Notes: generated by a model from the sequence alone, not told the origin. 64,000 bases of DNA from Alistipes sp. (GCA_017621455.1 JAGATC010000017.1:113172-177171), one strand, 5' to 3'; positions 35,203 to 56,918 are shown, counted from the first letter of the stretch. Made by a program: numbers and translations.

Positions 35203-37320
35203 ATGACAACAACAGCACTTATTATGTCAGCATTGACAGCTATGTCGACATGTGGCGATAAGCCCCTTGTTGATGTGCCCGAGTCACTCAAGGGCAACCC
35301 ATTGGTTGAGGAGTGGAACACACCCTACCAGACACCTCCATTCTCGGAGATTGAGTATGCACACTACGAGCCAGCGTTCGACTACGCAATTGAGCTCAAC
35401 CGCGCCGAGATTGACGCCATCGTTAACAACCCCGAGGCTCCAACGTTTGAGAACACCATCGTGGCTATGAACAACTCGGGCGAGTTGCTCGGCCGCATCT
35501 CTGGCGTATTCTTCGTGCTCAACAACTGCATGTCATCGCCCGAGATGCAGCAGATAGCTATGAACATCACCCCAAAGCTTACCGAGCTCTCGAACGACGT
35601 GTCGCTCAACCCCGCACTCTTCGAGCGTGTGAAGGTTGTGTACGACCAGCGCAAGAAGCTCCACCTCGACCAGGAGGATATGATGCTCTTGGAGGAGACC
35701 TATAAGGGCTTCTCACGCTCGGGTGCTCTGCTCGAGGGTGAGGCTCGCGAGCTCTACCGCCAGTACTCTTCGGAGCTCTCACAGCTCACACTCCAGTTTG
35801 GCCAGAACGCTCTTGGCGCTACCAACGCCTTTTCGTACAACATCACCGACCCCGCAAAGGTTGCCGAGTTGCCCGACTTCGTAAAGGATGGCTTGGCTGC
35901 TGAGGCTGCGGCACGTGGCGAGGAGGGCTGGACCGTAACTCTTGACGCACCCAGCTATGGTCCCTTCATGACCTACTCTACACAGCGTGACATCAAAGAG
36001 GCACTCTACCGCGCTTACAACACCCGTGGCATCGGTGGCGAGTTCGACAACACCGAGAACATCCGTCGCATCGCTGAGCTCCGCCTCAACATCGCCAACC
36101 TCCTCGGCTACAAGTGCTATGCAGACTACGTCCTCGAGGACCGCATGGCTGAGAGCACCAAGACCGTGAATGGCTTCCTCAACCAGCTCAACAAGGCTAC
36201 GCTAAGCTATGCTAAGCGCGATGTTGCCGACGTTACCGCCTACGCTCACTCACTCGGCTTCGAGGGCGAGCTTATGCCTTGGGACTTCGGCTACTACAAC
36301 GAGAAGTATAAGGAGGCTATGTACTCTATCAATGACGAGCAGATTAAGCCCTACCTACAGCTCGAGAACGTTAAGCAGGCGGTATTTATGCTTGCTGGCG
36401 AGCTCTACGGATTGACATTCACCGAGGTGGACAACATCGAGACATACCACCCCGAGGCTACCGTATACGAGGTACGCGACGATAAGGGTGAGCTTATGGC
36501 TATCCTCTACCTCGACTTCTTCCCACGCGAGTCGAAGCGTCAGGGTGCTTGGATGACCGAGTTCCGTGGCGTTAAGGTTCAGGATGGCGAGGAGCAGCGT
36601 CCTTTAGTTCAGCTCGTTATGAACTTCACCAAGCCCACTGCTAACACTCCATCGTTGCTCACCTTCGACGAGTTCACCACCTTCCTCCACGAGTTTGGTC
36701 ACGGCCTCCACGGCATCCTTGCTCACGGTAAGTATGAGTCTATCAACGGCACATCGGTTAAGCGCGACTTCGTGGAGCTCCCATCGCAGATTATGGAGAA
36801 CTGGGCTACCGAGAAGGAGTATCTCGACCTCTGGGCTAAGCACTACGTTACTGGCGAGCCTATGCCCGCAGAGCTTATCGAGAAGCTCGTAGCTGCTAAG
36901 AACTACCTTGCTGCTTACTACAACGTGCGCCAGCTCTCATTCGGTATGCTCGATATGAAGTGGCACACCATCACTGAGCCATACAGTGGCGACATCCTCG
37001 AGTTCGAGGCTAAGGCTATCTCTCCTACTCAGGTATTGCCTATCGTAGATGGCACAGCTATGGGTCCCGCCTTTACGCACATCTTCAGCGGTGGCTATGC
37101 TGCTGGCTACTATGGTTATAAGTGGGCTGAGGTACTCTCTGCTGATGCCTTCTCATACTTCAAGGAGAAGGGCATCTTCTCAGACGAGGTTGCGGGCAAG
37201 TTCCGCCACGAGGTATTGGAGAAGGGTGGCCACGAACACCCCATGACTCTCTACAAGAACTTCCGCGGTCACAAGCCCAAGACTCAGGCTCTTATCGACC
37301 AGATGGGTCTTAAGAAGTAG
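35203..37320 (+). CDS. M3 family metallopeptidase (Dcp-like), paralog
   Basis: HEFGHGLH, FVELPSQIMENW, GGYAAGYYGYKWAE. Confidence 0.92.
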   Translation: MTTTALIMSALTAMSTCGDKPLVDVPESLKGNPLVEEWNTPYQTPPFSEIEYAHYEPAFDYAIELNRAEIDAIVNNPEAPTFENTIVAMNNSGELLGRISGVFFVLNNCMSSPEMQQIAMNITPKLTELSNDVSLNPALFERVKVVYDQRKKLHLDQEDMMLLEETYKGFSRSGALLEGEARELYRQYSSELSQLTLQFGQNALGATNAFSYNITDPAKVAELPDFVKDGLAAEAAARGEEGWTVTLDAPSYGPFMTYSTQRDIKEALYRAYNTRGIGGEFDNTENIRRIAELRLNIANLLGYKCYADYVLEDRMAESTKTVNGFLNQLNKATLSYAKRDVADVTAYAHSLGFEGELMPWDFGYYNEKYKEAMYSINDEQIKPYLQLENVKQAVFMLAGELYGLTFTEVDNIETYHPEATVYEVRDDKGELMAILYLDFFPRESKRQGAWMTEFRGVKVQDGEEQRPLVQLVMNFTKPTANTPSLLTFDEFTTFLHEFGHGLHGILAHGKYESINGTSVKRDFVELPSQIMENWATEKEYLDLWAKHYVTGEPMPAELIEKLVAAKNYLAAYYNVRQLSFGMLDMKWHTITEPYSGDILEFEAKAISPTQVLPIVDGTAMGPAFTHIFSGGYAAGYYGYKWAEVLSADAFSYFKEKGIFSDEVAGKFRHEVLEKGGHEHPMTLYKNFRGHKPKTQALIDQMGLKK

Positions 37321-37334
37321 TCTTAGTTAGAGCT

Positions 37335-37382
37335 AAAACCAAAACGGAGTCAGCCACCGCGGCTGACTTCGTTTTGGTTTTA
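37335..37382. terminator. Bidirectional intrinsic terminator
   Basis: AAAACCAAAACGGAGTCAGCC-accgc-GGCTGACTTCGTTTTGGTTTT between convergent genes. Confidence 0.8.
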
Positions 37383-37421
37383 GCACTGATGTGATGATTT
37401 TTAATTTTCTGCAGCAAGAGA

Positions 37422-37826
37422 TTATCTGCCATATGAATTAGGGGCACTCCAAGTGTAATATTTACCTTTGTGATAAAAATTACCACGCGTTACAGATTGT
37501 ATAAACCCTGCATCGCGAATAGTTTTTAACGTATGTCTATCTATATAATCTTCTTCATTATTATTATAAATATCAATATCAATACGAATATAATTACCAT
37601 CCTTCTCATATATTGCGTAGGGCCTACCAAAATCGTCTTCTACTTCACTAAACGTGGAGACAAATCTAACATCCCCCATATAAGACCAACCGTTAGCTTC
37701 TAACTCTTCTCTGGCAGATATGAAACCTTTTTCATCTTTATTATCATCTTTCTTTTTATCCTCACCACATGAGATGTTCAATACCATGCTTACTAATAAA
37801 GTACTTATAAATAATAATTTTCTCAT
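37422..37826 (-). CDS. Hypothetical lipoprotein, AT-rich
   Basis: MRKLLFISTLLVSMVLNIS-C lipobox followed by a charged linker. Confidence 0.7.
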   Translation of the reverse strand: MRKLLFISTLLVSMVLNISCGEDKKKDDNKDEKGFISAREELEANGWSYMGDVRFVSTFSEVEDDFGRPYAIYEKDGNYIRIDIDIYNNNEEDYIDRHTLKTIRDAGFIQSVTRGNFYHKGKYYTWSAPNSYGR

Positions 37827-37886
37827 AATTACAAATCATTTACTGCTTAATATTCAATATTGTACACACAACGTCCACATAAATAA

Positions 37887-38119
37887 TTACGCACAAAAAA
37901 AAGCGCGGGACAATTAGTTATATTCCCGCTCAGAGGTGTTTGGCGTAACCCGACAGAATAATACAACAAAAAGCCCACGCTATACAGCGCGAGCATTCCA
38001 ACTATTATTCCTTCTGTCTATTAGTCGCCAAACTTCCTGAGCAGCAGAATAAAGCTAAAACGCTTTTCCAATATGTCTAAAATGTGCGTATCAACTATAC
38101 GCTATGCTTCATAGGCAAT
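37887..38119 (-). ncRNA. Putative structured 5' leader RNA with terminator, family B copy 1
   Basis: ~235-nt repeat of 47771-48004; nested stems with compensatory changes; ends GCGGGA..TCCCGC-GC-T8. Confidence 0.65.
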
Positions 38120-38198
38120 GTTTGTTTAAGTATTGATTATTAAGGTGTCTTATTTAAAAAACCTTAAACCCATATTGTCTTCGTCTCCAATATTAATG

Positions 38199-38229
38199 CA
38201 AATGTAATAAAAAGTTATAAATATACAAA
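38199..38229 (-). promoter_or_regulatory. Promoter upstream of leader B1
   Basis: Minus strand TTTG-N19-TACATTTG. Confidence 0.7.
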
Positions 38230-38322
38230 ATATTGGAATGATCTGCTCTTTATACGTACATATTTGGATGATTACAATAGATTTCGTATATCTGTAGTAT
38301 TAATTACAACCTTATAGTCTGC

Positions 38323-38708
38323 ATGGACCTCAAATTATTCAAAATAGGATATACGAAATTCGCGGGCAAAGGGTGATGCTCGACTTTGACTTGGCAGAGT
38401 TATACCAAGTGGAGACGCGAGCCCTAAAGCAAGCCGTGAGACGTAATATCGAGCGATTCCCAGAAGATTTTCTATTTAGATTAACCAAAGAAGAGGCTAA
38501 TAGACTGATTACCATAGGGGTATCACAAAATGTGATACCCCCCGACTACAATATTGGATCATCGGAGGAGAATATGGAGGCTGTAAACGACCTCTCGGAG
38601 GATATGCGCAAGGAACTTGACAATATCTACCAAGCCATTGCCGCACTCTCGGTAAAGCCCCCACAACCACCCCGTGCGCCCATCGGTTTCAAAACGAACG
38701 ATAAATAA
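38323..38708 (+). pseudogene. ORF6N-domain protein, frameshifted and apparently internally deleted
   Basis: ATG GAC CTC then a 1-nt shift restores (Q)[24 protein letters not shown]; the usual central AFTEQGVAMLS-type segment is absent; ends PIGFK. Confidence 0.75.
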
Positions 38709-38766
38709 CAACAATGGGGTGACTAAAAAGTAAATTAGCCACCCCCACTTTGTCATGAGGTTGAAG

Positions 38767-38846
38767 AAAAAGATGTAGTTTTAGGCATGCGAAGTCCGAA
38801 AAAGCGGAGTTTACTCGACGTAAATGAGCATTTTGAGGGCGAGCAT
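38767..38846. repeat. 80-bp dispersed repeat, family C copy 1
   Basis: Near-exact reverse complement of 42846-42926. Confidence 0.8.
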
Positions 38847-39015
38847 ATTTGTTGGGAGAAGGCATTAGATACAACACTCGACAAATTTCGAGGCGATGGG
38901 CTGTACTTTGACGTACTGCCCATTGCCAAGATAATTTGTTAGCGGCAGTAGATGATGCCTTATCTCAACAAAGAACGACAAAATACACTTATTATTCAGC
39001 CTCTTCATAATTTCT

Positions 39016-39621
39016 CTACCGTGAGCGTTTACGGCGCGGAAGCTCGATATACTCCGTGTAGACGAGCTCCGTATTGGGATTCGACGACCACACCTCCTGG
39101 CGGATAGCCTTAGTGCCGTAGCGTATAAACCAAAACTTACGCGGCACGCGGTGGATGACCTGATGCAGCGTGTCGACGCTATGCACGGCGTAGCTAAGGC
39201 TATCGCCATACAATATGCCCTCCACCCTACTCCACGCATCCGCAGCAGCAAAGTAGCGATAGGCCCGAGGCAGACTATCGCGCACTACGACCGTATCGCG
39301 CACCACAACCGTGTCGGCTATGGTCGTAATCATGGCACTCTTAGCGTAGCTCTCGGCACGGCGCAGGCGTATGCCGAGCGACTCTATCTCCTTGGCATCG
39401 CGCTCATGCGCCTCGCGAAACTCCGCCACGGTAAGCTCCAGCGCCTCAATCGAGGCGGCAGACCTATCGTTCTCAGTACGATAGAGTTGCACCTCACCCA
39501 TAAGCGCCCGCTGGTTACGCTCCAAGCGGCCATTCTCCTCGATAAGGCGGCTAATAACAACGCCACACACAACGGCAACAATAGTGGCAATGGCTGCCAC
39601 CCACAACAAAATTTTCTTCAT
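39016..39621 (-). CDS. Membrane-anchored coiled-coil/beta protein resembling Bacteroidales phage lysis-module (spanin-like) proteins
   Basis: N-terminal TM, heptad coiled coil, DTVVVRDTVVVRD repeat, KFWFIRYGTK; family assignment is from recall only. Confidence 0.45.
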   Translation of the reverse strand: MKKILLWVAAIATIVAVVCGVVISRLIEENGRLERNQRALMGEVQLYRTENDRSAASIEALELTVAEFREAHERDAKEIESLGIRLRRAESYAKSAMITTIADTVVVRDTVVVRDSLPRAYRYFAAADAWSRVEGILYGDSLSYAVHSVDTLHQVIHRVPRKFWFIRYGTKAIRQEVWSSNPNTELVYTEYIELPRRKRSR

Positions 39622-39815
39622 ACGATTAGGATTTTATGCTCGATTATGCGACAAAGATAGCAGTGTGCGATGCGGTCGTTTTCCAAAAATTGTATAAAAA
39701 GCACATTTTATTGCCCGAATAATTGGCAGTTTGATAAAAAAGTCCTACCTTAGCCTAATATTATGGACATGTCTATTCGGACACAAACAACTAAATAAAC
39801 ATAAACCTAAAGACT

Positions 39816-41246
39816 ATGATTAATTATTCAGGCAAGACTCGCGTTGAGAGCGACCTTCTCGGCGAGATGGAGGTGCCCGTTGAGGCCCTTTATGGTGTGC
39901 AGACATTGCGCGGTATCGTAAACTTCCCCATTAGCCGCTTCCACCTAAACGACTATCCATTGTTTATCAATGGCTTAGCTATGACTAAGCTCGGTGCTGC
40001 TGAGGCTAACCACCAGCTCGGCCTCCTCACCGACGAGCAGTTCGATGGCATCTCAAAGGCTTGCCTCGAGATTATGCAGGGCCAGCACCACGACCACTTC
40101 CCCTGCGACATGATTCAGGGTGGTGCAGGTACTACCACCAACATGAACGCTAACGAGGTTATCGCAAACCGCGCTCTTCAGATTATGGGTCACCAGCCTG
40201 GCGAGTATCAGTACTGCTCACCCAACGACCACGTAAACTGCTCACAGTCAACAAACGACGCATACCCCTGCGGTATCCACCTCGGTCTCTACGCTACACA
40301 CAAGGCATTCATGGGTCACTACAACGAGCTTATCGAGGCATTCGAGAAGAAGGCTAAGGAGTTCGCACACATCCTTAAGATGGGTCGTACTCAGCTTGAG
40401 GACGCTGTGCCTATGACCCTCGGTCAGACATTCGGCGCATTTGCTCAGATCCTCAAGGAGGAGCGCAAGAACCTCGAGTTCGCAGCAGAGGAGTTCCTCA
40501 CAGTGAACATGGGTGCTACAGCCATCGGTACAGGTATCTGCTCAGAGCCCGAGTACTCAGAGAAGTGCATCGCAGCGCTCCGCCAGATCACCGGTTGGGA
40601 CATCAAGCTCGCTGAGGACCTCGTAGCAGCTACATCGGACACCACTTGCATGGTGGGCTACTCTTCAGCACTTCGTCGCGTGGCTGTTAAGCTCAACAAG
40701 ATCTGTAACGACCTCCGTCTCTTGGCTTCAGGTCCTCGTTGCGGTCTCCACGAGTTCGACCTCCCCGCACGTCAGCCCGGCTCATCTATCATGCCAGGTA
40801 AGGTTAACCCCGTTATCCCCGAGGTTATGAACCAGATATGCTACAAGGTTATCGGTAACGACGCATGTGTGGCTATGTGCGCACAGGAGGCTCAGATGGA
40901 GCTCAACGCCATGGAGCCTACAATGGCACAGTGCTGCTTCGAGTCTGCTGAGATCATGATGAACGGTTTCGACACCTTGCGCGTAAACTGCGTTGAGGGC
41001 ATCGTTGCTAACGAGGCACAGTGCCGCAAGTATGTTGAGGATAGCTTCGGCATCGTAACAGCGCTCAACCCCATCATCGGCTACAAGAACTCTACAAAGA
41101 TTGCTAAGAAGGCAATGGCAACTGGTGGCCGCGTTTACGACATCGTACTCGAGGACGGCATCCTAACAAAGGAGGAGCTTGATACTATTCTCTCACCCGA
41201 GAATATGATTAAGCCTGTAAAGCTTAACATTAAGCCCCGCCGATAA
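39816..41246 (+). CDS. aspA: Aspartate ammonia-lyase
   Basis: QGGAGTTTNMNANE, KMGRTQLEDAVP, GSSIMPGKVNP. Confidence 0.95.
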   Translation: MINYSGKTRVESDLLGEMEVPVEALYGVQTLRGIVNFPISRFHLNDYPLFINGLAMTKLGAAEANHQLGLLTDEQFDGISKACLEIMQGQHHDHFPCDMIQGGAGTTTNMNANEVIANRALQIMGHQPGEYQYCSPNDHVNCSQSTNDAYPCGIHLGLYATHKAFMGHYNELIEAFEKKAKEFAHILKMGRTQLEDAVPMTLGQTFGAFAQILKEERKNLEFAAEEFLTVNMGATAIGTGICSEPEYSEKCIAALRQITGWDIKLAEDLVAATSDTTCMVGYSSALRRVAVKLNKICNDLRLLASGPRCGLHEFDLPARQPGSSIMPGKVNPVIPEVMNQICYKVIGNDACVAMCAQEAQMELNAMEPTMAQCCFESAEIMMNGFDTLRVNCVEGIVANEAQCRKYVEDSFGIVTALNPIIGYKNSTKIAKKAMATGGRVYDIVLEDGILTKEELDTILSPENMIKPVKLNIKPRR

Positions 41247-41282
41247 TTTTCGATTATAAGGCAGACATCTACTGCCGCTAAC

Positions 41283-41337
41283 AAAAAGTCCCGACAATGA
41301 GCAGTACCACCAAGTACAGCCCATCGTCGGGATTTTT
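41283..41337 (+). terminator. Probable terminator after aspA
   Basis: AAAAAGTCCCGAC...GTCGGGATTTTT (long loop). Confidence 0.5.
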
Positions 41338-41373
41338 GCCGAGCGTTGTATCTGCAGCCTTCTAATCAAAAAT

Positions 41374-41502
41374 TAATTTGTTGTGATAGTGGGCCTCCTT
41401 CGACGCCTCAATCCAAAGCCCGAATGGGAAATACGCAAAGTATATCCCATCCGGGCTTTCTCTTTATCGGCGCCAAATTAAGCCTCTTCTGACTTCAAAT
41501 TA
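41374..41502. mobile_element. MITE-like element, family A copy 4 (opposite orientation)
   Basis: TAATTTGTTGTGATAGTGGG ... CCTCTTCTGACTTCAAATTA; interior closely matches the reverse complement of copy 3. Confidence 0.7.
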
Positions 41503-41648
41503 GGTCGTGGGGTAGGGTATGTCATCACAAAATGATAATTCAATGAATACCACCATCTTTTCTTGATTATTTAGAAAATCTTTACTATATTTGTATAGCT
41601 ATCAGCCAGGTTAGCAATTACACTATTCCCATTAAAAACTACAACGTT

Positions 41649-42791
41649 ATGAAGAGACTATTCCTACTTTTAATTTTGTGCGGCACACTCGGTGCAGTAA
41701 ATCTATTTGCGCAAGATCTCTATAAAGTTACCTCTAACTCGGGGTTAAATGTGCGTAGCGCGCCAAATACTAATAGTACAATCTTGGGAAGATTGGCTAA
41801 TGGGCAACTTATTGAGGTGGATACGTTTGTTGGCGATTGGGCTGAGTTTCAGTACAATGACAAAACAGCCTATGTCTATTCTAAGTATATAAGCAAGGTA
41901 GAGTCCAATGCAGAGGGAGACACCAAGACTGATATATATGAAGTTATAAACGCATCATATCTTAACGTGCGCAGTCAGCCTACCACACAGTCGAGCGTAA
42001 TAGGCTCATTGGCAGCAGGCGACAGGGTCGAGGTAATCTCTACCACCACCTACTGGGCAAAGATTATATATAAGGGGAGGGAGGCATATGCCAGTCTCAA
42101 ATACCTAAAAAAGATTGAGGAGGAGCCTCTTGATGAGCAACGCATCCCCATTGACGTCACCGATACTTCAGAAAAGAGAGCGAACACAAACAACACTACT
42201 ACTAAAACAAATTCCACTGCTGATAGCAAACCTATTAATGGTGTCTCATTTAGAATAGTATACTCTCAGCCTTTTAAAGACAATGATGTATCATCGATTA
42301 CTTATTCTTTGCACTATGTCCACAATATTATTGGGCCGTTATATGGTTCATTGGGTTTAGGTATCGATCACACGTTAACATCCAGGTATTTAGGATACAA
42401 TAGCTATGCAGCATATGACACAATTGACTCATCTACAACTGCGTTAACTATACCTCTTGAATTAGGAGTACGCCTACCGTGGGATGGCAACTTTGCACTA
42501 AACCTATATACAGGTCCTCGTTTCGATATACTCCTTGGCGGAAAGACCAAGTATAAGTACGGAGGAGAGGTTATTGAAACTATAAAGATAAATGAACGGA
42601 TAAGAAAGCAAGATAAAGATGACGAGAACAGAATCAGACGAGGCTCAAGTTCATGGGTCTTCGGTGCAGCAGTAAACATCTATGGTTTCGATCTTGGTTG
42701 TCAGTTCGGCTTAAAAATGTCTCAACGTGATAAAATAGGAAACACCGCCGATTCTTGGGGTGTATACATAGGCTGGACGGCGTTATTTTAA
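41649..42791 (+). CDS. Secreted protein: two SH3b domains plus C-terminal outer-membrane beta-barrel-like domain
   Basis: Signal peptide; LNVRSAP..W..Y.YSKY and LNVRSQP..W..YASLKY; T/N-rich linker; alternating beta-strands ending GVYIGWTALF. Confidence 0.75.
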   Translation: MKRLFLLLILCGTLGAVNLFAQDLYKVTSNSGLNVRSAPNTNSTILGRLANGQLIEVDTFVGDWAEFQYNDKTAYVYSKYISKVESNAEGDTKTDIYEVINASYLNVRSQPTTQSSVIGSLAAGDRVEVISTTTYWAKIIYKGREAYASLKYLKKIEEEPLDEQRIPIDVTDTSEKRANTNNTTTKTNSTADSKPINGVSFRIVYSQPFKDNDVSSITYSLHYVHNIIGPLYGSLGLGIDHTLTSRYLGYNSYAAYDTIDSSTTALTIPLELGVRLPWDGNFALNLYTGPRFDILLGGKTKYKYGGEVIETIKINERIRKQDKDDENRIRRGSSSWVFGAAVNIYGFDLGCQFGLKMSQRDKIGNTADSWGVYIGWTALF

Positions 42792-42845
42792 TAGTCTCTT
42801 CCGTTAAACAAAGGGGAGTGAATAAAAAGTGTATTTTTTTTCGTT

Positions 42846-42926
42846 ATGCTCGCCCTCAAAATGCTCATTTACGCTTAAGTAAACTCCGCTTTTTCGGGCT
42901 TCGCATGCCTAAAACTACATCTTTTT
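42846..42926. repeat. 80-bp dispersed repeat, family C copy 2 (inverted)
   Basis: Reverse complement of 38767-38846 with a few substitutions. Confidence 0.8.
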
Positions 42927-42991
42927 ATTCACTCTCTTAGATATCAAGGGCTGGCTAAGTAACTTATTAGTCAGCCCCTTTGTTTGTTGTC

Positions 42992-44401
42992 TTAGTGCGT
43001 AAAGACCTTACCCATCTGTCTCTCTTGGCGCTCATACTGTAGGCGCGAGTTGGTGGGATAGGTGAGCTTGTCGAGCTCCTTGGCAGCATCCTCAATATCG
43101 CGCAGAAGCATATCGGCCATATCTCGTGACATGCCTTGGCGCACAACAATACGCATAACGACCATATCCTCAATGCTCTTAGGCATGGAGTAGGCGGGCA
43201 CCATCCAGCCACTCTGCTGCAGGCGCGCCTGTAGGTCGTACAACGTCCACTTAGCACTCTTGTCGTAGCCTGCCCTCATCGTCCAGACAAAGAGCGGGTT
43301 AACCACCTCCTTTGCGTAGTTCTCGAAGTATGGCATAGCACCTATGCGCTCGTGGCAGTAGCGGGCAATCTCCATGGAGTTGCGGTGCACGTTCTCATAG
43401 CCCTTGCGGCCGAGGCGGATAAAGTTGTAGTATTGTCCAAGTATCTGCGCTGCGGGGCGCGAGAAGTTGAGGCCCACCTGCGTAACCTCCGCACCGAGGT
43501 AGTTCACCGAGAAGCTCATCTCCTCGGGCAGATAGCTCTTATCGCGCCATACCACCCAGCCGAGACCAGGATATACCAGGCCGAACTTATGTCCCGAGGT
43601 AGAGATAGACACCACCCACTTTAGCCTAAAGTCCCACTTCGTGTCGGGGCTGACAAAGGGGAGAATAAAGCCTCCTGAGGCTGCATCCACATGAATAGGG
43701 ATGTTGTAGCCCGTGCGCTTATTGTAGTCGTCCAACGCCTTATCTAAGGCCTCCACATCATCGTTAAGGCCAGTCCACGTAACGCCCGCAATGGCGACAA
43801 CGGCAATGGTGTTCTCGTCGCACATCTTCAGCGCGTCGTCGGTGCATAGCGTGCGCTTCTCACGCGTGAGGGGCACCTGGCGCAGCTCTATCTGCCATAG
43901 CTTGCAGAACTTCTCCCACACGACTTGTAGGCCAGTGCTTATGACAAGGTTGGGCTTATCGGTGGGCTTGCCCTCCTTCTCGCGGCGATGACGCCAGCGG
44001 AGCCATGCGGCGACACCACCAAGCATGCAGGCCTCCGAGGAGCCTATGCCCACGGCACCCGTCATCGACTCGCTCTTCTCGGGGCTGTGCCAGAGGTTGG
44101 CGATGATGTTGATGCAGCGCGAGGCCATAACGGCAACACGCGGATACTCCGTCTGGTCGATGTAGTTGATGGCGATAGCCTCGTTCATAAGACGCGTGGC
44201 GTGGTCGTCCATATAGGTTGTCACAAATGTTGCGAGGTTAAGCTGTGGATTGGTCTCCACCATGGCCTCATCCTTAACCATGCGGTAGGCAATCTCGGGC
44301 ATGGTCATCTCCTCGGGGATTGTTGTTGTAGGCGCGGGGCGAAGCATCTCCTCCGACCCGTAGACGGCAGCTGTTGCCGTAGAGCATCGTTTTTCGTTCA
44401 T
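42992..44401 (-). CDS. gadB: Glutamate decarboxylase
   Basis: NLATFVTTYMD, NYIDQTEYP, IHVDAASGGF, SGHK(PLP)FGLVYPG, LNFSRP; start taken at MNEKR. Confidence 0.93.
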   Translation of the reverse strand: MNEKRCSTATAAVYGSEEMLRPAPTTTIPEEMTMPEIAYRMVKDEAMVETNPQLNLATFVTTYMDDHATRLMNEAIAINYIDQTEYPRVAVMASRCINIIANLWHSPEKSESMTGAVGIGSSEACMLGGVAAWLRWRHRREKEGKPTDKPNLVISTGLQVVWEKFCKLWQIELRQVPLTREKRTLCTDDALKMCDENTIAVVAIAGVTWTGLNDDVEALDKALDDYNKRTGYNIPIHVDAASGGFILPFVSPDTKWDFRLKWVVSISTSGHKFGLVYPGLGWVVWRDKSYLPEEMSFSVNYLGAEVTQVGLNFSRPAAQILGQYYNFIRLGRKGYENVHRNSMEIARYCHERIGAMPYFENYAKEVVNPLFVWTMRAGYDKSAKWTLYDLQARLQQSGWMVPAYSMPKSIEDMVVMRIVVRQGMSRDMADMLLRDIEDAAKELDKLTYPTNSRLQYERQERQMGKVFTH

Positions 44402-44517
44402 AATAGTGTAAAATTTAAGTGTTATACAACGCCTCCGACCGACACAAACCATGCCACCCGCAATGCTAGAATTATGCTGCGGGGTACCTCTTTAGTTAAT
44501 ATAAAACATATACAATT

Positions 44518-44889
44518 ATGAAACGGCTGTTTACAATCTTTACTATAACACTTGCGCTACTAACCATTGATTATGCCTCTGCGGCAGATTCAACAACGGC
44601 TGATAACACCATAGATAAGACCGAAATCACAGGTCGTGTGAGTGCAAACGACTGCCACATTATCGCCTATGATGCTACCAAAGGTGAGAAAATTATAGTA
44701 GAACTATATGGCGATGGCGATACAGACCTCGCACTATATGTCTACGATAAGGAGGAAAGGCTAATTGTGGATGATGAACTCAGCGATGATGGCACCTATG
44801 GTTGGACGGCAGAGTATACAGGTAAGTATTATATTGTTGTAAAGAATCAAGGTGACGTGTATAACGAATTTAGGATGGTTATCCAGTAG
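44518..44889 (+). CDS. Small secreted protein with pre-peptidase C-terminal (PPC)-like domain
   Basis: Signal peptide; GDGDTDLALYVYD and TGKYYIVVKN motifs. Confidence 0.6.
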   Translation: MKRLFTIFTITLALLTIDYASAADSTTADNTIDKTEITGRVSANDCHIIAYDATKGEKIIVELYGDGDTDLALYVYDKEERLIVDDELSDDGTYGWTAEYTGKYYIVVKNQGDVYNEFRMVIQ

Positions 44890-45073
44890 CCCCACGACTG
44901 GTTATTATTTTCCATACGATAAAATAGTGGCCTATTTATCGCAAAATAGATAGATGCAAACAATTTTATTTTACACTCAATCGTTATATTGGCACGAGTA
45001 TTGCAAAAGACTCTGACAGCTACGTTGGCAACGAGACAACGTAGTTAGGTTTCTTCATTTATTTAAGTTTGGG

Positions 45074-45798
45074 TTAGTAGTTTTTACAGAATTTGTTTCT
45101 GGAAGGCGAGCGGCAGTCGTGAGACTCCCGCTCGTTCTTTTTTATGACAAATTCTGTAAAAACTATGACTGCTCCCGCGGCGTGGCAGAGTAACCTGCGA
45201 GTTTGTATGATAGTTTGGCGTATTGCTACGCAATAAGCGTGGTTGTGCCGTAGGTCTTTTGCAAACAAGTTCACATAGACCAACGACACAACCACACACG
45301 TCTTCGTCGTCGCCAAACCATCATACCTCCTCTTGCTCTGCGCAAACCTTAAGGAGAGTTAGTAGTTTGTTAAAGGTGTTACGCTGCGCTCCACAAAAGT
45401 ATTAATAGAATTTGTTTCTGGAGAATAGGCGGCAGTTGTGAAACTCCCGCCTATTTCTTTTGTTTATTTCTGTAAAAACTATGACGATTCGGTGGCGGCT
45501 CGGATGACTTATCTTGTGTATTGTGTGGCAAAGATGCTATGCATCCAATGTGTCTGCTTTGACACCAAGCACCTCATATAAATATGGCTGACTTGTTGCC
45601 AAATCAGCCACACATCTACGATGTTGCGCCACACAACACCCTGCGGTCACCTCTCGCCTGCTGCGAACGTTAGTAGTTTTGGCGTGCTACCCCGCTGGTC
45701 GTGCGTAGCACAAACAGTTGTCCTATGAAATAGTTTTTTACAGAATTTGTTTCTGGAAGGCGAGCGGCAGTCGTGAGACTCCCGCTCGTTCTTTTTTT
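45074..45798. repeat. Non-coding mosaic of interrelated structured repeats
   Basis: Core GAATTTGTTTCTGGA at 45089, 45408 and 45743, each followed by a GCGGCAGT.GTGA.ACTCCCGC hairpin; family-B-like stem at 45205-45326. Confidence 0.8.
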
Positions 45799-46950
45799 TT
45801 ATTCCTTTTCATTTATTGTATATAGTATATCATGCAGATAGTCAAATATCATTTGTTTACTTTGACATAGATGGTCGACCTCACTAATATTTTGTCCTTC
45901 ACTAGCGATGAAAGAGTGGTATGGACACCCTCCATTACAAATATAAAAGTATCCACATTTGTTTTGTGCACACTTGTTTATAGCCTCTACTCTTTGATCT
46001 ATTAACTCGCACATTTTTTTTGATTCCACGGATAATAACTCCAAAAGAGTAGACTGCTGAATATTTCCCAACATCATATTATCAGAACCAGTAAATTTGG
46101 GACACAAATAGGCATCTCCATTTGGAGTTAACGCAACAAAATTAGTCAAACACCTACCGCCATATGTACAAATGGTATCGCTAATAGGTGCTTGTTTTTG
46201 CAGACATTTAATAATGTCATACACAGTTCTAGGCACTGGTGAAATTTTTCCTCGCTCAACCCAGGCATTAAATTCAGATATAAAGTATCTCGCTACATCT
46301 TCTTTTGACAATGCAATGCTATTATCTTTGACATTATTCTTTTCATAGTATATATATGGATTACTATGAAAAGAATTCACCTCAAGTTGTTGAAAACACT
46401 CAAGCATCTCATTTTCAAACCCCAAATTATTTTTTGTGATAGTACTAATAAAACCGCAAGACGCTCCTTTATCTCGAATATAATTCATCGTTTTAACAAC
46501 AGCATCATACGAACCTTGATTAGTGTTGGTTGGTCGATTCTGATTGTGAATTGTACGAGTGCCATCTATGGTTGTTGATATTGAAAATTCATTCTCTATC
46601 AAAAAATCAATAAGTCCAGGATCAAAAAGATTACCACTTGTTTGGACACAATTTTCATATGGTTTAGTTGAGTGTTTCTTCTGGAGTTCAATAACATTCT
46701 CAAAGAAATATTTGCCAACCAAAAGAGGCTCTCCTCCAGTCCATTCAAAAACTACATAACTATGATTTGTTTGAAATGCTTGGTATATGGCCTGATCTAA
46801 CAACTCTATTGGGAATGTTATAGGCTTACCATTATGCGTTCCTTTGGCGAAACAATATTTGCACGAAAGAACACATTTATCCGTAAGTTGAAAGATAACA
46901 TTTAATGTATTACACTCTCTTAATCGTGAGATATATTCGGTTCGCAACAT
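45799..46950 (-). CDS. Radical SAM/SPASM domain protein, putative peptide maturase
   Basis: CVLSCKYC (CxxxCxxC), WTGGEPLL, STTIDG; SPASM cysteines CTYGGRC..GDAYLC..CAQNKCGYFYICNGGCP..HLC; start taken at MLRTEY. Confidence 0.92.
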   Translation of the reverse strand: MLRTEYISRLRECNTLNVIFQLTDKCVLSCKYCFAKGTHNGKPITFPIELLDQAIYQAFQTNHSYVVFEWTGGEPLLVGKYFFENVIELQKKHSTKPYENCVQTSGNLFDPGLIDFLIENEFSISTTIDGTRTIHNQNRPTNTNQGSYDAVVKTMNYIRDKGASCGFISTITKNNLGFENEMLECFQQLEVNSFHSNPYIYYEKNNVKDNSIALSKEDVARYFISEFNAWVERGKISPVPRTVYDIIKCLQKQAPISDTICTYGGRCLTNFVALTPNGDAYLCPKFTGSDNMMLGNIQQSTLLELLSVESKKMCELIDQRVEAINKCAQNKCGYFYICNGGCPYHSFIASEGQNISEVDHLCQSKQMIFDYLHDILYTINEKE

Positions 46951-46969
46951 ATAGGTAATATTAAAAATA

Positions 46970-46998
46970 GGGGGCGATTTCATACAACAATCGCCCCT
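46970..46998 (-). terminator. Stem-loop/partial terminator between precursor and rSAM genes
   Basis: GGGGCGATT/AATCGCCCC stem followed by TATTTTT on the minus strand. Confidence 0.65.
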
Positions 46999-47067
46999 TG
47001 TTGTCATTTAGAAAACATTAATTGCTCTTATACATCTTCCTGCAACACTCTTTCTGGATTATATAGA

Positions 47068-47538
47068 TTAGTTACATTCGTAATAAGAATCCCTATTTGA
47101 ATGTTTATCTGTGTGGTGTTTATTTCCAGAATTAGTGTGACTTTGAACAGGATTTCTATTTGTATGCCTATCAGAATGAGGATCACAAAATTCAACCCTT
47201 TCCTGAGTTCCATCATCCTTCGTTACCCACTTATAGCTACTCTTGGCGTTAGTATTACTGTGGCTGTCTGAATGATTTGTATTAGCATGATGGTCAGCGT
47301 GATTATTACCAATGTTTGTGTGCACATCTGAATGAACCATTAATCCAGATTCGGAAGTATAATTACTATGTAATGGACTTATCAGATCAATAACTTCATT
47401 TTTACAAACTTCCATTATATCTTGTTCTGGCACCTGCAGCATAGTGGGTTCCGCTGCATTCGCAGCTGAGATTGATAACACACTTGCAGGTATTGTAATG
47501 CCTAATTTTATAGCAATTTCTTTTGCGCTCTTTTTCAT
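47068..47538 (-). CDS. His-rich repeat protein, putative RiPP precursor (H-x-D-x-H-x-N repeats)
   Basis: Signal-like leader ending AANA-A; 12 H-[STA]-[DN] motifs; lies directly upstream of the rSAM/SPASM gene. Confidence 0.8.
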   Translation of the reverse strand: MKKSAKEIAIKLGITIPASVLSISAANAAEPTMLQVPEQDIMEVCKNEVIDLISPLHSNYTSESGLMVHSDVHTNIGNNHADHHANTNHSDSHSNTNAKSSYKWVTKDDGTQERVEFCDPHSDRHTNRNPVQSHTNSGNKHHTDKHSNRDSYYECN

Positions 47539-47550
47539 AGTTATCAAATA

Positions 47551-47703
47551 TTAGTCATCAAACACACTTTCATCTCCAGTTAGTCCATAATTGTATCCAT
47601 CCCAAAATGCCTCATACTCCTCAGGTGTACAAGATGTTGTCAATAGACATATAGACACTGATAAAATGATTACAAAGAACATTGATTTTATTAACTTTTT
47701 CAT
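47551..47703 (-). CDS. 50-aa small lipoprotein (not in ORF track)
   Basis: Hand translation MKKLIKSMFFVIILSVSICLLTTS-CTPEEYEAFWDGYNYGLTGDESVFDD*; AT-rich run before the ATG; stop 12 nt before the precursor ATG. Confidence 0.7.
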   Translation of the reverse strand: MKKLIKSMFFVIILSVSICLLTTSCTPEEYEAFWDGYNYGLTGDESVFDD

Positions 47704-47770
47704 AATTAAAGTTAGGATACCAAATCATTTTTGCTCAATTCAATCCCGTTACTCCAATCTCATCTCACTT

Positions 47771-48004
47771 TTACGCACAAAAAAAGCGCGGGACAATTAG
47801 TTATATTCCCACTTCGAGGTGTTTGGCGTAACCCAGGTAGATGAATAACTAAAAGCCCGCACCGAATAGTGCGAGCATTTCAACTATTATTCCCATCTAC
47901 CTTTTTTAGTCGCCAAACTTCCGAAGTGATAGAATAAAGCTAAAACGCTTTTCCAATATGTCTAAAATGTGCGTATTAACTATACGCTATGCTTCATAGG
48001 CAAT
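47771..48004 (-). ncRNA. Putative structured 5' leader RNA with terminator, family B copy 2
   Basis: Repeat of 37887-38119 with compensatory stem changes; ends GTGGGA..TCCCGC-GC-T7. Confidence 0.65.
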
Positions 48005-48080
48005 ATCTCTTTAAGTGATTTACAAAATTCATGTCGGCCCTAAATACCATCAATACACTGCATATTTCACAATGATAGTA

Positions 48081-48112
48081 CAAATATACGAATTTCTTAT
48101 GCAAAAACCAAA
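48081..48112 (-). promoter_or_regulatory. Promoter upstream of leader B2 / RiPP operon
   Basis: Minus strand TTTG-N20-TATATTTG. Confidence 0.7.
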
Positions 48113-48197
48113 TGTTTACCCACCATAATTTGTTTCTGGAGAGGGAGTGTGGATATATAAAATAACAAACCGTCAAGATAACTTAACGGTTTGAATT

Positions 48198-48800
48198 TTA
48201 TAGACGCTCCTTTATGATTTTTGCCCATTCGGGAATTGGTCCACTGTACTCCTTCGCGACTTTGCCTTCGACTGTTCTAAATAGTGGTCGAGCATCGCAA
48301 TTCTCTGCCGAGTTATCGTAGAGATAGCAACGATCGACTACACGGGCTACCTCAACACAATTAGCGATAGATAGATTGTAGCGTGAGATAATTTTAGATA
48401 TTGGCACATCGTGACCACCTTGCATAACTCGTCGAGCAATACGCGATGCATTTATCGTGGGAGACTCCGTGCACACAAAGAACACCCTAACAAAGAATCC
48501 AGCCGCCTTTGCTCTACGGATATAATCGACCTTATCTTTACGCGAAAGTACCGTTTCGAAGATAAGACTCTTACCCTCAGCAAGAGATTTCTCGCGCAAC
48601 GCCTCACAGTAAGCGATAGACTTCTTAACAGCCTCCGCCGAGTTCCAATCACCAAATTGCTCTTGTGCAACGATATCAGGATTGATATATATAGCATCCT
48701 CCATCCACTCGTGACGCAAGATCTGTTCTGTCACAGTCGTTTTGCCCGACCCGTTGGGCCCAGCGATAACTATCAAAACAGGTTTGTGATTATTTACCAT
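48198..48800 (-). CDS. Zeta-toxin-like/AAA_33 P-loop protein
   Basis: AGPNGSGKT Walker A, YINPD, FETVLS, RVMQGGHDVP, LYDNS; start taken at MVNNHK. Confidence 0.85.
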   Translation of the reverse strand: MVNNHKPVLIVIAGPNGSGKTTVTEQILRHEWMEDAIYINPDIVAQEQFGDWNSAEAVKKSIAYCEALREKSLAEGKSLIFETVLSRKDKVDYIRRAKAAGFFVRVFFVCTESPTINASRIARRVMQGGHDVPISKIISRYNLSIANCVEVARVVDRCYLYDNSAENCDARPLFRTVEGKVAKEYSGPIPEWAKIIKERL

Positions 48801-48987
48801 CGCTACAAGTGTACTCTGCCAAATTGTCCGACACCAACTGCTCCAACTCGGCGCGGAATTTTGCCTCAACCTCGGCACCACGACGACGAGCCTCCTCGCC
48901 CGCTGCGTGCATCAAGGCTTCAAGCTGTTCATCTGTAGGCTCTTCAATACCAGTGAGACGATATTTCTTTAACTCTTGCTCCGACAT
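48790..48987 (-). CDS. Small helical protein, putative antitoxin
   Basis: 65 aa (EEPTDEQLEALM); overlaps the start of the P-loop gene; own promoter TTTG-N20-TAACTTTG containing an ATTATT/AATAAT palindrome. Confidence 0.6.
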   Translation of the reverse strand: MSEQELKKYRLTGIEEPTDEQLEALMHAAGEEARRRGAEVEAKFRAELEQLVSDNLAEYTCSDGK

Positions 48988-49070
48988 AATGAGAATCATT
49001 GGTTTCTGCAAAGTTAGCAATTATTAAGCAATAATACAAAACTCGCTCTATTTTTATTGCTCGGGAGTTT

Positions 49071-49161
49071 TCTTGCTCTGCGCAAACCTTAAAGAACGTT
49101 AGTAGTTTATAAAAGGTGTTACGCTGCGCTCCACAAAAGAGTTAATGAATTTGTTTCTGGA
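49071..49161. repeat. ~92-bp direct repeat of 45331-45422
   Basis: About 8 differences in 92 nt by manual alignment; ends in the GAATTTGTTTCTGGA core. Confidence 0.85.
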
Positions 49162-49167
49162 AGGCAG

Positions 49168-50055
49168 TTAATACCTTACCTTAAAATAGTCGAGTACCGC
49201 TTTGTAGTTATCTTGTGCCGTTAGGCAGGTATCGCGCAGATACTCCTTAATGCGAGGCCACTCACGCAGACCACGATAGTAGAACATTTTTAGTTCATCG
49301 GTGATGATAAATGGCACATGGCCATTTGCCAGGCACTCCTTGAACATCACAAGGCGGCCTACACGACCATTGCCATCCTGGAATGGGTGTATCGCCTCGA
49401 AACGCTGATGCAGGTCGATAATATCCTCGAATGACTTTCGCTTCTTGCCGTTATACTCCTTGAAGAGTGCCTTTATCTCACGATGTACATCTTCGGGTGC
49501 GGTGGTCTCGTTGCCACCCACCTCGTTAGGGAGACGTTTATAGTCGCCAACGGTAAACCAATCCTTGCGACTATCCGAAGTGCCCATCTTTAGCGTCGAG
49601 TGCAACTCCTTGATAAGGCTCTCGGTAAGTCGCTCCTCTGCTCGGTCGATAATAAGGTCGATGCAACGGAAGTGATTAGTAGTCTCGATGATATCATCCA
49701 CACGCACGCTCTCACCCTCGATGCCAATAGTATTGGTCTCGAAGATGTAGCGTGTCTGGTCGTGTGTCAGACGACTGCCCTCGATATGGTTGGAGTTATA
49801 TGTAAGGTCGATTTGTGTCTTGTGATAGATGCCACCTTTGAGCTTCGCTTCCTTCTCTTGGCGCAGAACAACAAGCAATGGCATCGCCTTGCGCTGCCGA
49901 GGCTTACGCCCTGGCAACTCCGCATCGGCAGGGATGTTCCACGTCTTACCCACAAGGGTTGCGCCCTCAATCTTTCCGAGAGCACAATAATTACGCGCTG
50001 TACGCTCCGAGACGCCATACTTGGCAGCAAAATCTGTTACTGAAATATACTTCAT
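49168..50055 (-). CDS. HTH + Fic family protein
   Basis: N-terminal HTH (VSERTARNYC); HPFQDGNGRVGR Fic motif. Confidence 0.92.
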   Translation of the reverse strand: MKYISVTDFAAKYGVSERTARNYCALGKIEGATLVGKTWNIPADAELPGRKPRQRKAMPLLVVLRQEKEAKLKGGIYHKTQIDLTYNSNHIEGSRLTHDQTRYIFETNTIGIEGESVRVDDIIETTNHFRCIDLIIDRAEERLTESLIKELHSTLKMGTSDSRKDWFTVGDYKRLPNEVGGNETTAPEDVHREIKALFKEYNGKKRKSFEDIIDLHQRFEAIHPFQDGNGRVGRLVMFKECLANGHVPFIITDELKMFYYRGLREWPRIKEYLRDTCLTAQDNYKAVLDYFKVRY

Positions 50056-55387: not shown

Positions 55388-56683
55388 TTAATTTAGGCCG
55401 AACTCATGCTTTAGGCGGTCAACCTCATCAATCTTCTCCCACGAGAAGAACTCAACCTCCTTAGCGAACTCCTTGCCCTTATCGCCCACGAAGCGTACAA
55501 GCTCGGTGTAGGGGCGACGACCAAAGTGGCCATACGAAGCTGTAGCCTCGAAGATGGGATACTTCAAACCGAAGCGCTCGACGATAGCTGCGGGGCGTAG
55601 GTCGAATAGTGCGCTAATCTTGGCAGCAATCTCGCCATCGGTCATATCTACATTTGCCGTGCCGTAGGTGTCGACATATACCGAGAGGGGCTGTGCGATA
55701 CCTATGGCGTAGCTCACCTGTACCAACACCTCGCGTGCGATGCCCGCAGCAACCATATTCTTAGCAATGTGGCGTGCTGCATAGGCTGCCGAGCGGTCCA
55801 CCTTCGACGAATCCTTACCCGAGAAGGCACCACCACCGTGTGCGCCACGGCCACCGTAGGTATCGACAATAATCTTACGGCCAGTAAGGCCAGTGTCGCC
55901 ATGAGGACCGCCGATTACGAACTTACCCGTGGGGTTAACGTGAAGGATGTAGTCGTCGCCAATAAGCTCTGCCACCTTGTCGCCCGCGCGCTCCAGGCGT
56001 GCCTTAACGCGGGGGATAAGGATGTTACGCACATCGTCGGCAATGATGCGCTGCATCTCGCGCTCGGCCTCGGCCTCGGTACGAGTGCGTGTGGGCAGGA
56101 TAAACTCGTCGTGCTGCGTAGATACCACGATGGTATGCACACGCTTAGGACGGCGGTCGTCACCATACTCTATGGTCACCTGACTCTTAGAGTCGGGACG
56201 TAGGTAGGTCATAAACTCGCCACCACGGCGGATGTCTGCCAACTCCTTGAGGATGACGTGCGAAAGGATAAGCGTTGCGGGCATAAGCTCGCGTGACTCA
56301 TCCACAGCGTAGCCAAACATGATACCCTGGTCGCCAGCACCCTGGTCCTCGCCATCCTTGCGGTCTACGCCCTGGTTGATGTCTGCCGACTGCTCGTGGA
56401 TTGCCGAGAGTACGCCACACGATGCTGCATCGAACTGATACTCGCTGCGGTTGTATCCTATGCGGTCGATAACGCGGCGTGCCACGCCCTGGATGTCAAC
56501 ATAACCCTCCGAGCGTACCTCACCCGAAACGACAGTTAAGCCTGTGGTACACAGCGTCTCGCATGCCACCTTAGAGTTAAGGTCGCGACGGAGAAACTCG
56601 TCGAGGATAGCGTCTGAAATCTGATCGGCCACCTTATCGGGGTGACCCTCTGAAACTGATTCTGATGTGAATAAAAAAGCCAT
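55388..56683 (-). CDS. metK: S-adenosylmethionine synthetase
   Basis: [45 protein letters not shown]. Confidence 0.98.
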
Positions 56684-56739
56684 ACGTTAAATTCAATTAC
56701 AAGTTATAAACGTATGGAAGGGGAATTGCGTATAAAATA

Positions 56740-56790
56740 TGCCTTTTAGCAATTTTTTATTGTGGTTGCAATAAGTCCAAATCCTTCCAC
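56740..56790 (-). promoter_or_regulatory. SAM-II-type riboswitch in the metK leader
   Basis: GUGG-AAG-GAUUU-GGACUUAU-UGCAA-CCAC-AAUAAAAAAU-UGCUAAAAGG matches the SAM-II core (P1 GUGG/CCAC); TACCTTTG promoter box at 56806-56813. Confidence 0.75.
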
Positions 56791-56918
56791 ATTGGTTTTC
56801 GGCTGCAAAGGTAATAAAAAAAAGTGACGGGCAAATATTTCGGTAAAATTATTTTCTTATAGTGACATAGGCAGGGCTGATAGCATAATCGGAGAGGGGT
56901 GCTATTAGCACCACAAAC

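Follow-up and report, generated by a model that had tools for sequence, protein, structure and literature searches.

Transcription attenuators of the trp/his, PyrR and TRAP kinds place an element between a promoter and the regulated open reading frame (ORF), and consist of four segments: for termination, segment 1 pairs with 2 and segment 3 with 4, helix 3:4 abutting a U-run, and for antitermination, segment 2 pairs with 3. Riboswitch platforms such as c-di-GMP-I (cyclic di-GMP) are structured, covarying 5′ leaders with mutually exclusive helices, present in many copies before diverse envelope genes. Both descriptions would also fit the leader RNA reported here, two copies of which, A and B, lie in a 64,000-nt stretch of DNA from Alistipes sp. 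(GCA_017621455.1, JAGATC010000017.1:113172-177171; hereafter the window, with positions counted from its first nucleotide). These copies belong to a widespread, multicopy RNA family of the class Bacteroidia that is absent from Rfam 15. We think it likely that this is a class-wide family of cis-acting 5′ leaders working as four-segment transcription attenuators with extra clamp helices: given two folds, one of which ends in a stop signal, the leader most likely switches genes for exported proteins on and off.

Bacteroidia are dominant in the mammalian gut, and it is the proteins they secrete, together with their surface lipoproteins, that decide colonization, competition and host interaction. 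To our knowledge, little is known about RNA-level control in this class. Among the RNAs described there are the FopS small RNAs (sRNAs), which are 65 to 70 nt long, combine a single-stranded seed with a terminator and target susC mRNAs in trans (PMC11697453).

Two copies of a widespread RNA family

An earlier note on this stretch of DNA had described a repeated, structured leader RNA, and both repeats are present where it had placed them, as matches to a covariance model and alignment confirm:

37882 to 38118, minus strand: copy A leader RNA, full model match (235.3 bits)
47766 to 48003, minus strand: copy B leader RNA, full model match (233 bits)

The two copies are 86% identical over ∼235 to 237 nt, with sharp borders at TTGCCTATG and TGTGCGTAA and unrelated flanks, and they differ mainly by compensatory changes in stems. 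One stem reads GCTCAG/CTGAGC in one copy and CACTTCG/CGAAGTG in the other, enclosing an invariant GTTTGGCG/CGCCAAAC; a second changes from GACAGA..GAATAATA/TATTATTCTGTC to GGTAGAT..GAATAA/TTATTCATCTACC, and the apical stem from GCTCGCGCT/AGCGTGGGC to GCTCGCAC/GTGCGGGC. All the compensatory changes previously listed were thus found in the sequence. The predicted fold energies, −80.7 and −84.0 kcal/mol (z scores of −5.3 and −7.4), were equaled by none of 200 dinucleotide shuffles.

The covariance model was built from 31 sequences, found by blastn over 201 genomes of the same taxonomic family, 36 of which contained relatives. In the genome from which the window comes (2.1 Mb), it finds ∼16 full-length matches, the majority of them too diverged for blastn; across the order, 83 of the 237 genera and 129 of the 401 sampled genomes contain matches, where the absence of a match in a genome is unreliable because only top candidates were scored, with stricter filters. 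Model searches also returned matches in other orders of the class. Hosts named by a pattern scan include Alistipes putredinis DSM 17216, Alistipes muris, Alistipes senegalensis, Rikenella, Odoribacter, Dysgonomonas and Tannerella, as well as metagenome-assembled genomes (MAGs) of Prevotellaceae, Paludibacteraceae and Muribaculaceae. The copy of A. putredinis DSM 17216 is on NZ_DS499580.1, ahead of a gene for a lipoprotein of 133 amino acids. In one uncultured Bacteroidales MAG, two members lie in tandem on the minus strand (locus L090, 2372 to 2619 and 2631 to 2851), 12 nt apart and before one lipoprotein gene, which may represent a tandem-switch arrangement.

The view that the leader is not a named family is borne out by Rfam 15. 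At the gathering threshold over the whole window, the leaders have no match, the real tRNA and SAM-II matches lying elsewhere; positions 37000 to 49000 give only chance microRNA and small nucleolar RNA matches at E values up to 10, and 10 distant members give nothing relevant at E values up to 1. Blastn of the leader against a plasmid collection and 50,697 phage records returned no match, and a pattern scan of IMG/VR returned 2 contigs only. A literature search by keywords and sequence strings found no description of the family; a transcriptome paper on Flavobacterium psychrophilum mentions uncatalogued structured 5′ regions and Flavo-1, with nothing identifiable as this leader.

A joined fold and a split fold

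In the fold that we call joined, helices P2, P3, P4 and P5 are predicted to stack as one long irregular hairpin. Its strands lie as follows:

38036 to 38045, minus strand: copy A, 5′ strand of P2 (GCTGCTCAGG), pairing with 37928 to 37936
38026 to 38033, minus strand: copy A, 5′ strand of P3 (GTTTGGCG), pairing with 37938 to 37945 (CGCCAAAC); this helix is 98.9% paired in the family alignment
37986 to 38018, minus strand: copy A, 5′ strand of P4 plus segment R2 (GACAGAAGGAATAATAGTTGGAATGCTCGCGCT), including the 5′ strand of P5 at 37986 to 37994
47868 to 47901, minus strand: copy B, 5′ strand of P4 plus segment R2, including the 5′ strand of P5 at 47868 to 47876
37969 to 37981, minus strand: copy A, segment R3 (AGCGTGGGCTTTT), the 3′ strand of P5 (apical hairpin) and the partner of R4 in the putative terminator fold
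47851 to 47863, minus strand: copy B, segment R3 (GGTGCGGGCTTTT)
37934 to 37963, minus strand: copy A, 3′ strand of P4 (TATTATTCTGTC) plus GGGTTA-CGCCAAAC-ACCT, the latter being the 3′ strand of P3 between the GGU/ACC arms of a putative alternative hairpin, Hb

Across 101 family members aligned to the covariance model, standard pairs form in 95.0% of cells compared to 73.7% in shuffles, and double changes occur in 34 of 38 pairs, filling 799 cells compared to 221 in shuffles (none of 500 shuffles reaches 799), counts that lean toward the structure because the model fitted the alignment to it. When partners are slid by 1 to 3 columns, pairing falls to 34 to 55%. P4 lies outside the model and provides an independent test, in which cognate strands pair at −13.5 kcal/mol and noncognate strands at −6.9 kcal/mol (p = 4e-52), with the cognate pair in the top decile at 89% of loci. 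The structured leader RNA proposed from the two copies therefore shows real covariation across the family. G·U pairs also far outnumber A·C mismatches across the family (318 compared to 42), which assigns the fold to sense-strand RNA of the gene rather than to the antisense strand or to duplex DNA. A further pairing, AAAAGCG/CGCUUUU, was considered as a closing helix and dropped: its AAGC has a local partner, GCUU, with which it makes a covarying hairpin, and in the other fold it pairs with R2.

That other fold, which we call split, involves two more segments:

38046 to 38067, minus strand: copy A, segment R1 (AAAAGCGTTTTAGCTTTATTCT), a small hairpin (P1c) in the joined fold and the partner of R2 in the split fold, both as predicted
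47931 to 47952, minus strand: copy B, segment R1
37895 to 37911, minus strand: copy A, segment R4 (GTCCCGCGC) plus the T8 run, the putative terminator 3′ strand and U-tract; its duplex with R3 is predicted at −13.2 kcal/mol
47779 to 47794, minus strand: copy B, segment R4 (GTCCCGCGC) plus the T7 run

R4, the 7 to 9 nt just before the U-run, has no general local partner. In all 29 loci listed of 141, its best upstream partner is R3, 71 to 87 nt away, and over the 141 loci the mean energy of the R3:R4 duplex is −11.9 kcal/mol, compared to −8.6 kcal/mol for shuffled R4 (p = 9e-43). In the alignment of 101 sequences, which was not fitted to this helix, 87% of its cells pair, rising to 94 to 99% for the six pairs nearest the U-run; 38 cells carry double changes compared to 13.8 in shuffles (0 of 500 as high), and slid controls pair in 31 to 59% of cells. 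R3:R4 is thus a GC-rich helix of 7 bp directly before U-run columns that are each at least 90% T, and it encloses an unusually long loop of ∼65 nt. R4 thus mimics the 5′ strand of P5. Since P5 (R2:R3) and R3:R4 share a strand, they are mutually exclusive, and both covary, which fits the earlier suggestion of an attenuator. The terminator proposed with it stands in part: T8 and T7 runs do follow GTCCCGCGC in the two copies, but the hairpin GCGGGA/TCCCGC assigned to them is peculiar to the window copies, whereas the family-wide stem uses the 3′ strand of the apical hairpin. We rejected the local hairpin as the family's terminator, most members lacking it. A simple scan also flags as terminator-like the P5 hairpin of the two copies (37973 to 37994 and 47855 to 47876, minus strand) with the UUUUUGUUG or UUUUAGUUAU that follows it; in most of the family, CUUUAC occupies this position instead.

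Forcing the R3:R4 pairing makes the 5′ half refold in each of eight sequences examined, so that the conserved R1 (AAAAGCGUUUUAGCUUUAUUCU and the beginning of P2) pairs over ∼20 bp with R2 (the last part of P4 and GGAAUAAUAGUUGAAAUGCU). The R1:R2 helix is locus specific, with energies of −18.5 kcal/mol for cognate, −14.2 kcal/mol for noncognate and −8.5 kcal/mol for shuffled strands (p = 4e-22, from an energy comparison rather than column counts). In addition, AGGU/ACCU arms flank the 3′ strand of P3 and covary (UA 81, CG 9, AU 2, GC 1); the joined fold does not permit this pairing, which suits a small hairpin, Hb, whose loop holds the 3′ strand of P3. The conserved "loop" nucleotides around P3 would thus find their explanation in the split fold.

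Which fold forms could in principle be set by a ribosome on a conserved 5′ mini-ORF of 2 to 5 codons. Both window copies carry ATG AAG CAT AGC GTA TAG (MKHSV*; 38102 to 38112 and 47987 to 47997, minus strand), the first alignment shows no variation in the ATG (A7 T8 G9), 99 of 109 members with an ATG have a stop within five codons, and the −7 promoter box abuts the ATG of some members, whose mini-ORF would be leaderless. Yet the ATG or the whole 5′ part is missing in 32 of 141 members, and the mini-ORF ends ∼30 nt before R1. Stops are also frequent in this AT-rich sequence, and ATG and TAG arise as well from the hairpin CTATG/CATAG, of which the ATG may be a by-product. Ribosome-mediated attenuation is therefore very improbable in our judgment.

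Association with promoters and downstream genes

A promoter had been described about 80 nt upstream of each copy, and Bacteroidetes −7 boxes are indeed found there:

38199 to 38206, minus strand: copy A promoter, −7 box TACATTTG, 81 nt upstream of the leader
48081 to 48088, minus strand: copy B promoter, −7 box TATATTTG, about 80 nt (78 to 85) upstream of the leader

The same holds for the family, with a TAnnTTTG box in the 155 nt around the leader start in 104 of 136 loci (76%), a median of 29 nt upstream. Within 110 nt after the U-run, such a box occurs in only 8 of the 136 loci (6%), about the level of chance. In most loci, an ORF on the same strand starts within ∼120 nt downstream, and of 148 first downstream ORFs, 112 (∼75%) are predicted by a simple rule to encode a signal peptide or lipobox. 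The Pfam families of these genes, 72 among 110 downstream proteins, include DUF6567, type IX secretion (T9SS) sorting domains, BspA-type leucine-rich repeats, BACON, outer-membrane beta-barrels, OmpH and Sel1; their theme is export and the envelope, with no single pathway. The unrelated small lipoprotein genes previously seen downstream of the window copies are present as ORFs of 134 and 50 amino acids, neither with a Pfam match:

37422 to 37826, minus strand: copy A cargo, 134-amino-acid lipoprotein
45799 to 47703, minus strand: copy B cargo, putative operon of a 50-amino-acid lipoprotein (47551 to 47703), a 156-amino-acid His-rich protein with a signal peptide (47068 to 47538) and a radical S-adenosylmethionine (SAM) enzyme (45799 to 47007)

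The 156-amino-acid protein is rich in His/Asn/Thr/Ser repeats (HSDVHTNIGNNHADHHANTNHSDSHSNTN...), and the operon may be a peptide-modification cassette.

Two helices connect the leader to the RNA beyond its U-run. P1 (ACGCACA/UGUGCGU) pairs across the U-run and covaries in the window's subfamily. P7 pairs the 5′ flank of R4 with a segment 22 to 37 nt after the U-run, cognate strands reaching −9.2 kcal/mol compared to −7.1 kcal/mol (p = 2e-14). Because both span the U-run, they can form only in read-through RNA. In the window, their strands are as follows:

37888 to 37895, minus strand: copy A, TGTGCGTA after the U-run, the complement of TACGCACA at 38083 to 38090 (outer helix P1)
47737 to 47750, minus strand: copy B, candidate 3′ strand of P7 (AACGGGATTGAATT), the complement of AATTGTCCCG just 5′ of the U-run as read from the sequence

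These data bear on whether the leader might instead be a stand-alone sRNA gene, whose terminated transcript of ∼200 nt acts in trans, the neighboring gene being incidental. The leader has its own promoter and U-run, it is multicopy as are Bacteroides sRNA families such as FopS (PMC11697453), and once terminated it could accumulate as an sRNA. However, the downstream ORF is close and on the same strand in most loci, a −7 box rarely separates it from the U-run, and the covarying P1 and P7 require RNA that has been read through; moreover, the variable stems are locus specific and self-complementary, with no shared seed. We therefore regard a trans-acting sRNA as clearly unlikely.

Many Alistipes-type copies carry a second conserved module, GGUACnnnGGAGUAACCCGAAAAGCCGUnAAnUGAGUAGGG, between the terminator and the start codon (L004, L005, L007 to L011, L017, L018, L020, L021, L024 and L026, with a partial copy in the window at 47748 to 47755). 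Its short stem varies and yet stays complementary, as judged by eye, and its GGUAC part is the 3′ strand of P7.

The leader is also portable. Three genomes of one genus share the same upstream gene and the same leader, and between two of them near identity extends to TTTTTTTTGTGCGTAA, beyond which their cargo genes are unrelated, the identity stopping exactly after TGTGCGTAA. Such an exchange of cargo at the 3′ border of the leader, together with the sharp borders between the window copies and the low GC content of leader and cargo (islands of 34 to 35% in a region of ∼55%), would suit a DNA-level element, that is, a recombination site or mobile cassette border of the integron attC or miniature transposon type that folds as single-stranded DNA. 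This is nevertheless extremely improbable, as the G·U excess places the fold on the sense strand of the gene, the element has a promoter upstream and a U-run downstream, and its copies are old, diverged with compensatory changes, and not recent insertions. The plasmid and phage collections lack it too. Finally, the attC cores read RYYYAAC and GTTRRRY; the leader's GTTTGGC and GCCAAAC do not fit them by direct reading, and the arms of P3 vary freely across the family.

Other features of the window

The genes next to the leaders (48198 to 50055, minus strand, and 38373 to 39621) encode a zeta-toxin-like ATPase, a Fic/DOC protein with a helix-turn-helix domain, an ORF6N fragment and DUF6549. Such accessory genes are consistent with a variable island.

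A stable hairpin at 45205 to 45326 (minus strand) had been taken for a third, divergent version of the leader. The hairpin exists as described and is very stable (−71.8 kcal/mol; z score of −8.3), but it has no match to the model on that strand and no relative in 150 genomes of the taxonomic family, and it shares with the leader only the 10- and 9-nt P3 arms GTTTGGCGAC/ACGCCAAAC. It is thus no family member by the model, and it could be a leader remnant or a chance resemblance.

The 14-mer TCCAGAAACAAATT occurs five times on one strand within 4 kb, where 0.02 copies are expected (45090 to 45103, 45409 to 45422, 45744 to 45757, 48127 to 48140 and 49148 to 49161, all on the minus strand). These copies punctuate the modules around leader copy B, and those at 45090 and 45409 come after a GC-rich hairpin, as inspection of the sequence indicates. 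Elsewhere in the genome, there are only two copies (G000:C14:85629-85949), 1.4 kb downstream of another leader copy.

A SAM-II riboswitch (56736 to 56796, minus strand; 55.4 bits compared to a gathering score of 44) lies upstream of an ORF at 55388 to 56683 that by eye resembles S-adenosylmethionine synthetase, an ordinary arrangement.

Discussion

From these two folds we infer regulated termination with a default fold, a kissing step and a trigger, as follows. In the joined fold, P2 to P5 would be stacked and R2 paired with R3, leaving R4 free, and RNA polymerase would read through into a gene without a promoter of its own; P2 to P4 would then act as clamps that hold the two halves together in the read-through state. 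In the split fold, R1 would pair with R2 and R3 with R4, and the GC-rich R3:R4 helix against the U-run would stop transcription. Two small hairpins, Ha and Hb, would perhaps each expose one P3 strand in the loop, and a loop-loop kiss between these hairpins could nucleate the change to the joined fold. The split fold would form first during transcription and persist over the ∼40 nt from Hb to the U-run, or else be stabilized by a factor. The trigger could be a small ligand, a protein that binds the RNA, or some kinetic or physical influence (for instance Mg2+, temperature or the speed of transcription), and we favor none of these.

Several observations weigh against this attenuator. The nested split fold is predicted to be 9 to 22 kcal/mol less stable than the joined fold, and it must therefore be kinetically trapped or factor stabilized to matter. 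Hairpin Ha (GAAA/UUUC), around the 5′ strand of P3, is paired in only 73% of cells in one register. The counts for the joined fold carry the alignment bias described above, of which the tests of P4, R1:R2, R3:R4 and P7 are free. About 25% of the downstream genes do not encode exported proteins, and their families are heterogeneous, so that gene function points to no shared signal. Neither a sensor nor a ligand pocket was identified. The stability difference and the lack of a sensor would both suit a constitutive element of the 5′ untranslated region, acting on mRNA stability, processing or translation, for which the U-run is no regulated terminator and the alternative pairings are folding intermediates; P1 and P7, which shape the read-through RNA near the start codon, would suit it as well. 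But such an element leaves unexplained why R4, against a conserved U-run, covaries in complementarity to the 3′ strand of P5, and why R1 mimics the partner of R2, and we consider it unlikely. A two-state attenuator accommodates both pairings and remains the reading that we prefer.

An attenuator of this kind might also be a global switch with a single input, in which all copies (∼16 in this genome) answer one cue and so set the accessory surface and secreted proteome. We offer this as a tentative extension that is rather doubtful. The joined fold might bind the cue in the form of a small ligand or second messenger, or the cue might be a physical one (Mg2+ or temperature, for example) that acts on the intramolecular kissing step. 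Such a switch would gate horizontally acquired envelope genes, and the conserved module would double as a homology handle for the exchange of cargo.

With members in about a third of the sampled Bacteroidales genomes, up to ∼16 copies in each, and ties to genes for exported proteins, the family would, as a covarying two-state switch, rank among the largest uncatalogued classes of cis-regulatory RNA in the phylum. Identification of its trigger would uncover a signal to which accessory envelope genes respond throughout the regulon and would also yield a portable control part for Bacteroides engineering.

The earlier note's observation is confirmed, and its interpretation is supported in part: portability and attenuation fit, whereas the analogy with the antisense control of phage P1 (c4/a1b1) or P4 CI is not supported. 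Although these are also small structured RNAs from a leader region, Rfam 15, which holds the c4 antisense family, gave no match, and neither an antisense partner nor target repeats were seen. A setting of phage immunity fares no better, with no match among the phage records, only two matching contigs in IMG/VR, and window neighbors of the ORF6N, DUF6549, zeta-toxin-like and Fic types. With the sRNAs FopS and GibS, the leader shares multiple copies in Bacteroidia, canonical sigma-ABfr promoters and a link to the outer membrane (PMC11697453), but at 190 to 240 nt, with a long hairpin and linked in cis to a gene, it differs from FopS in size and architecture, on which grounds we rejected their identity. 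The kissing-loop RNAs of ColE1 (RNA I/RNA II) and CopA/CopT offer a parallel in that complementary loops of 7 to 8 nt on two hairpins could nucleate a larger duplex. In the leader, however, both loops would lie in one molecule and the kiss is a proposed step, for which the covariation of Hb speaks more clearly than the pairing of Ha.

Unlike riboswitches, the leader has no riboswitch match in Rfam and no identified ligand pocket, its downstream genes share no single theme of metabolism or transport, and its conserved nonhelical nucleotides would mostly be explained by the alternative fold instead of a pocket. With the classical attenuators it shares the four-segment logic and the position between promoter and gene, but it is without a leader peptide over segment 1 or a known protein site. 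It differs further in that three extra clamp helices, P2 to P4 (∼25 bp), would join the two halves in the read-through fold, and in that, whereas a classical attenuator serves one biosynthetic operon, this leader stands in ∼16 copies per genome before unrelated genes for exported proteins.

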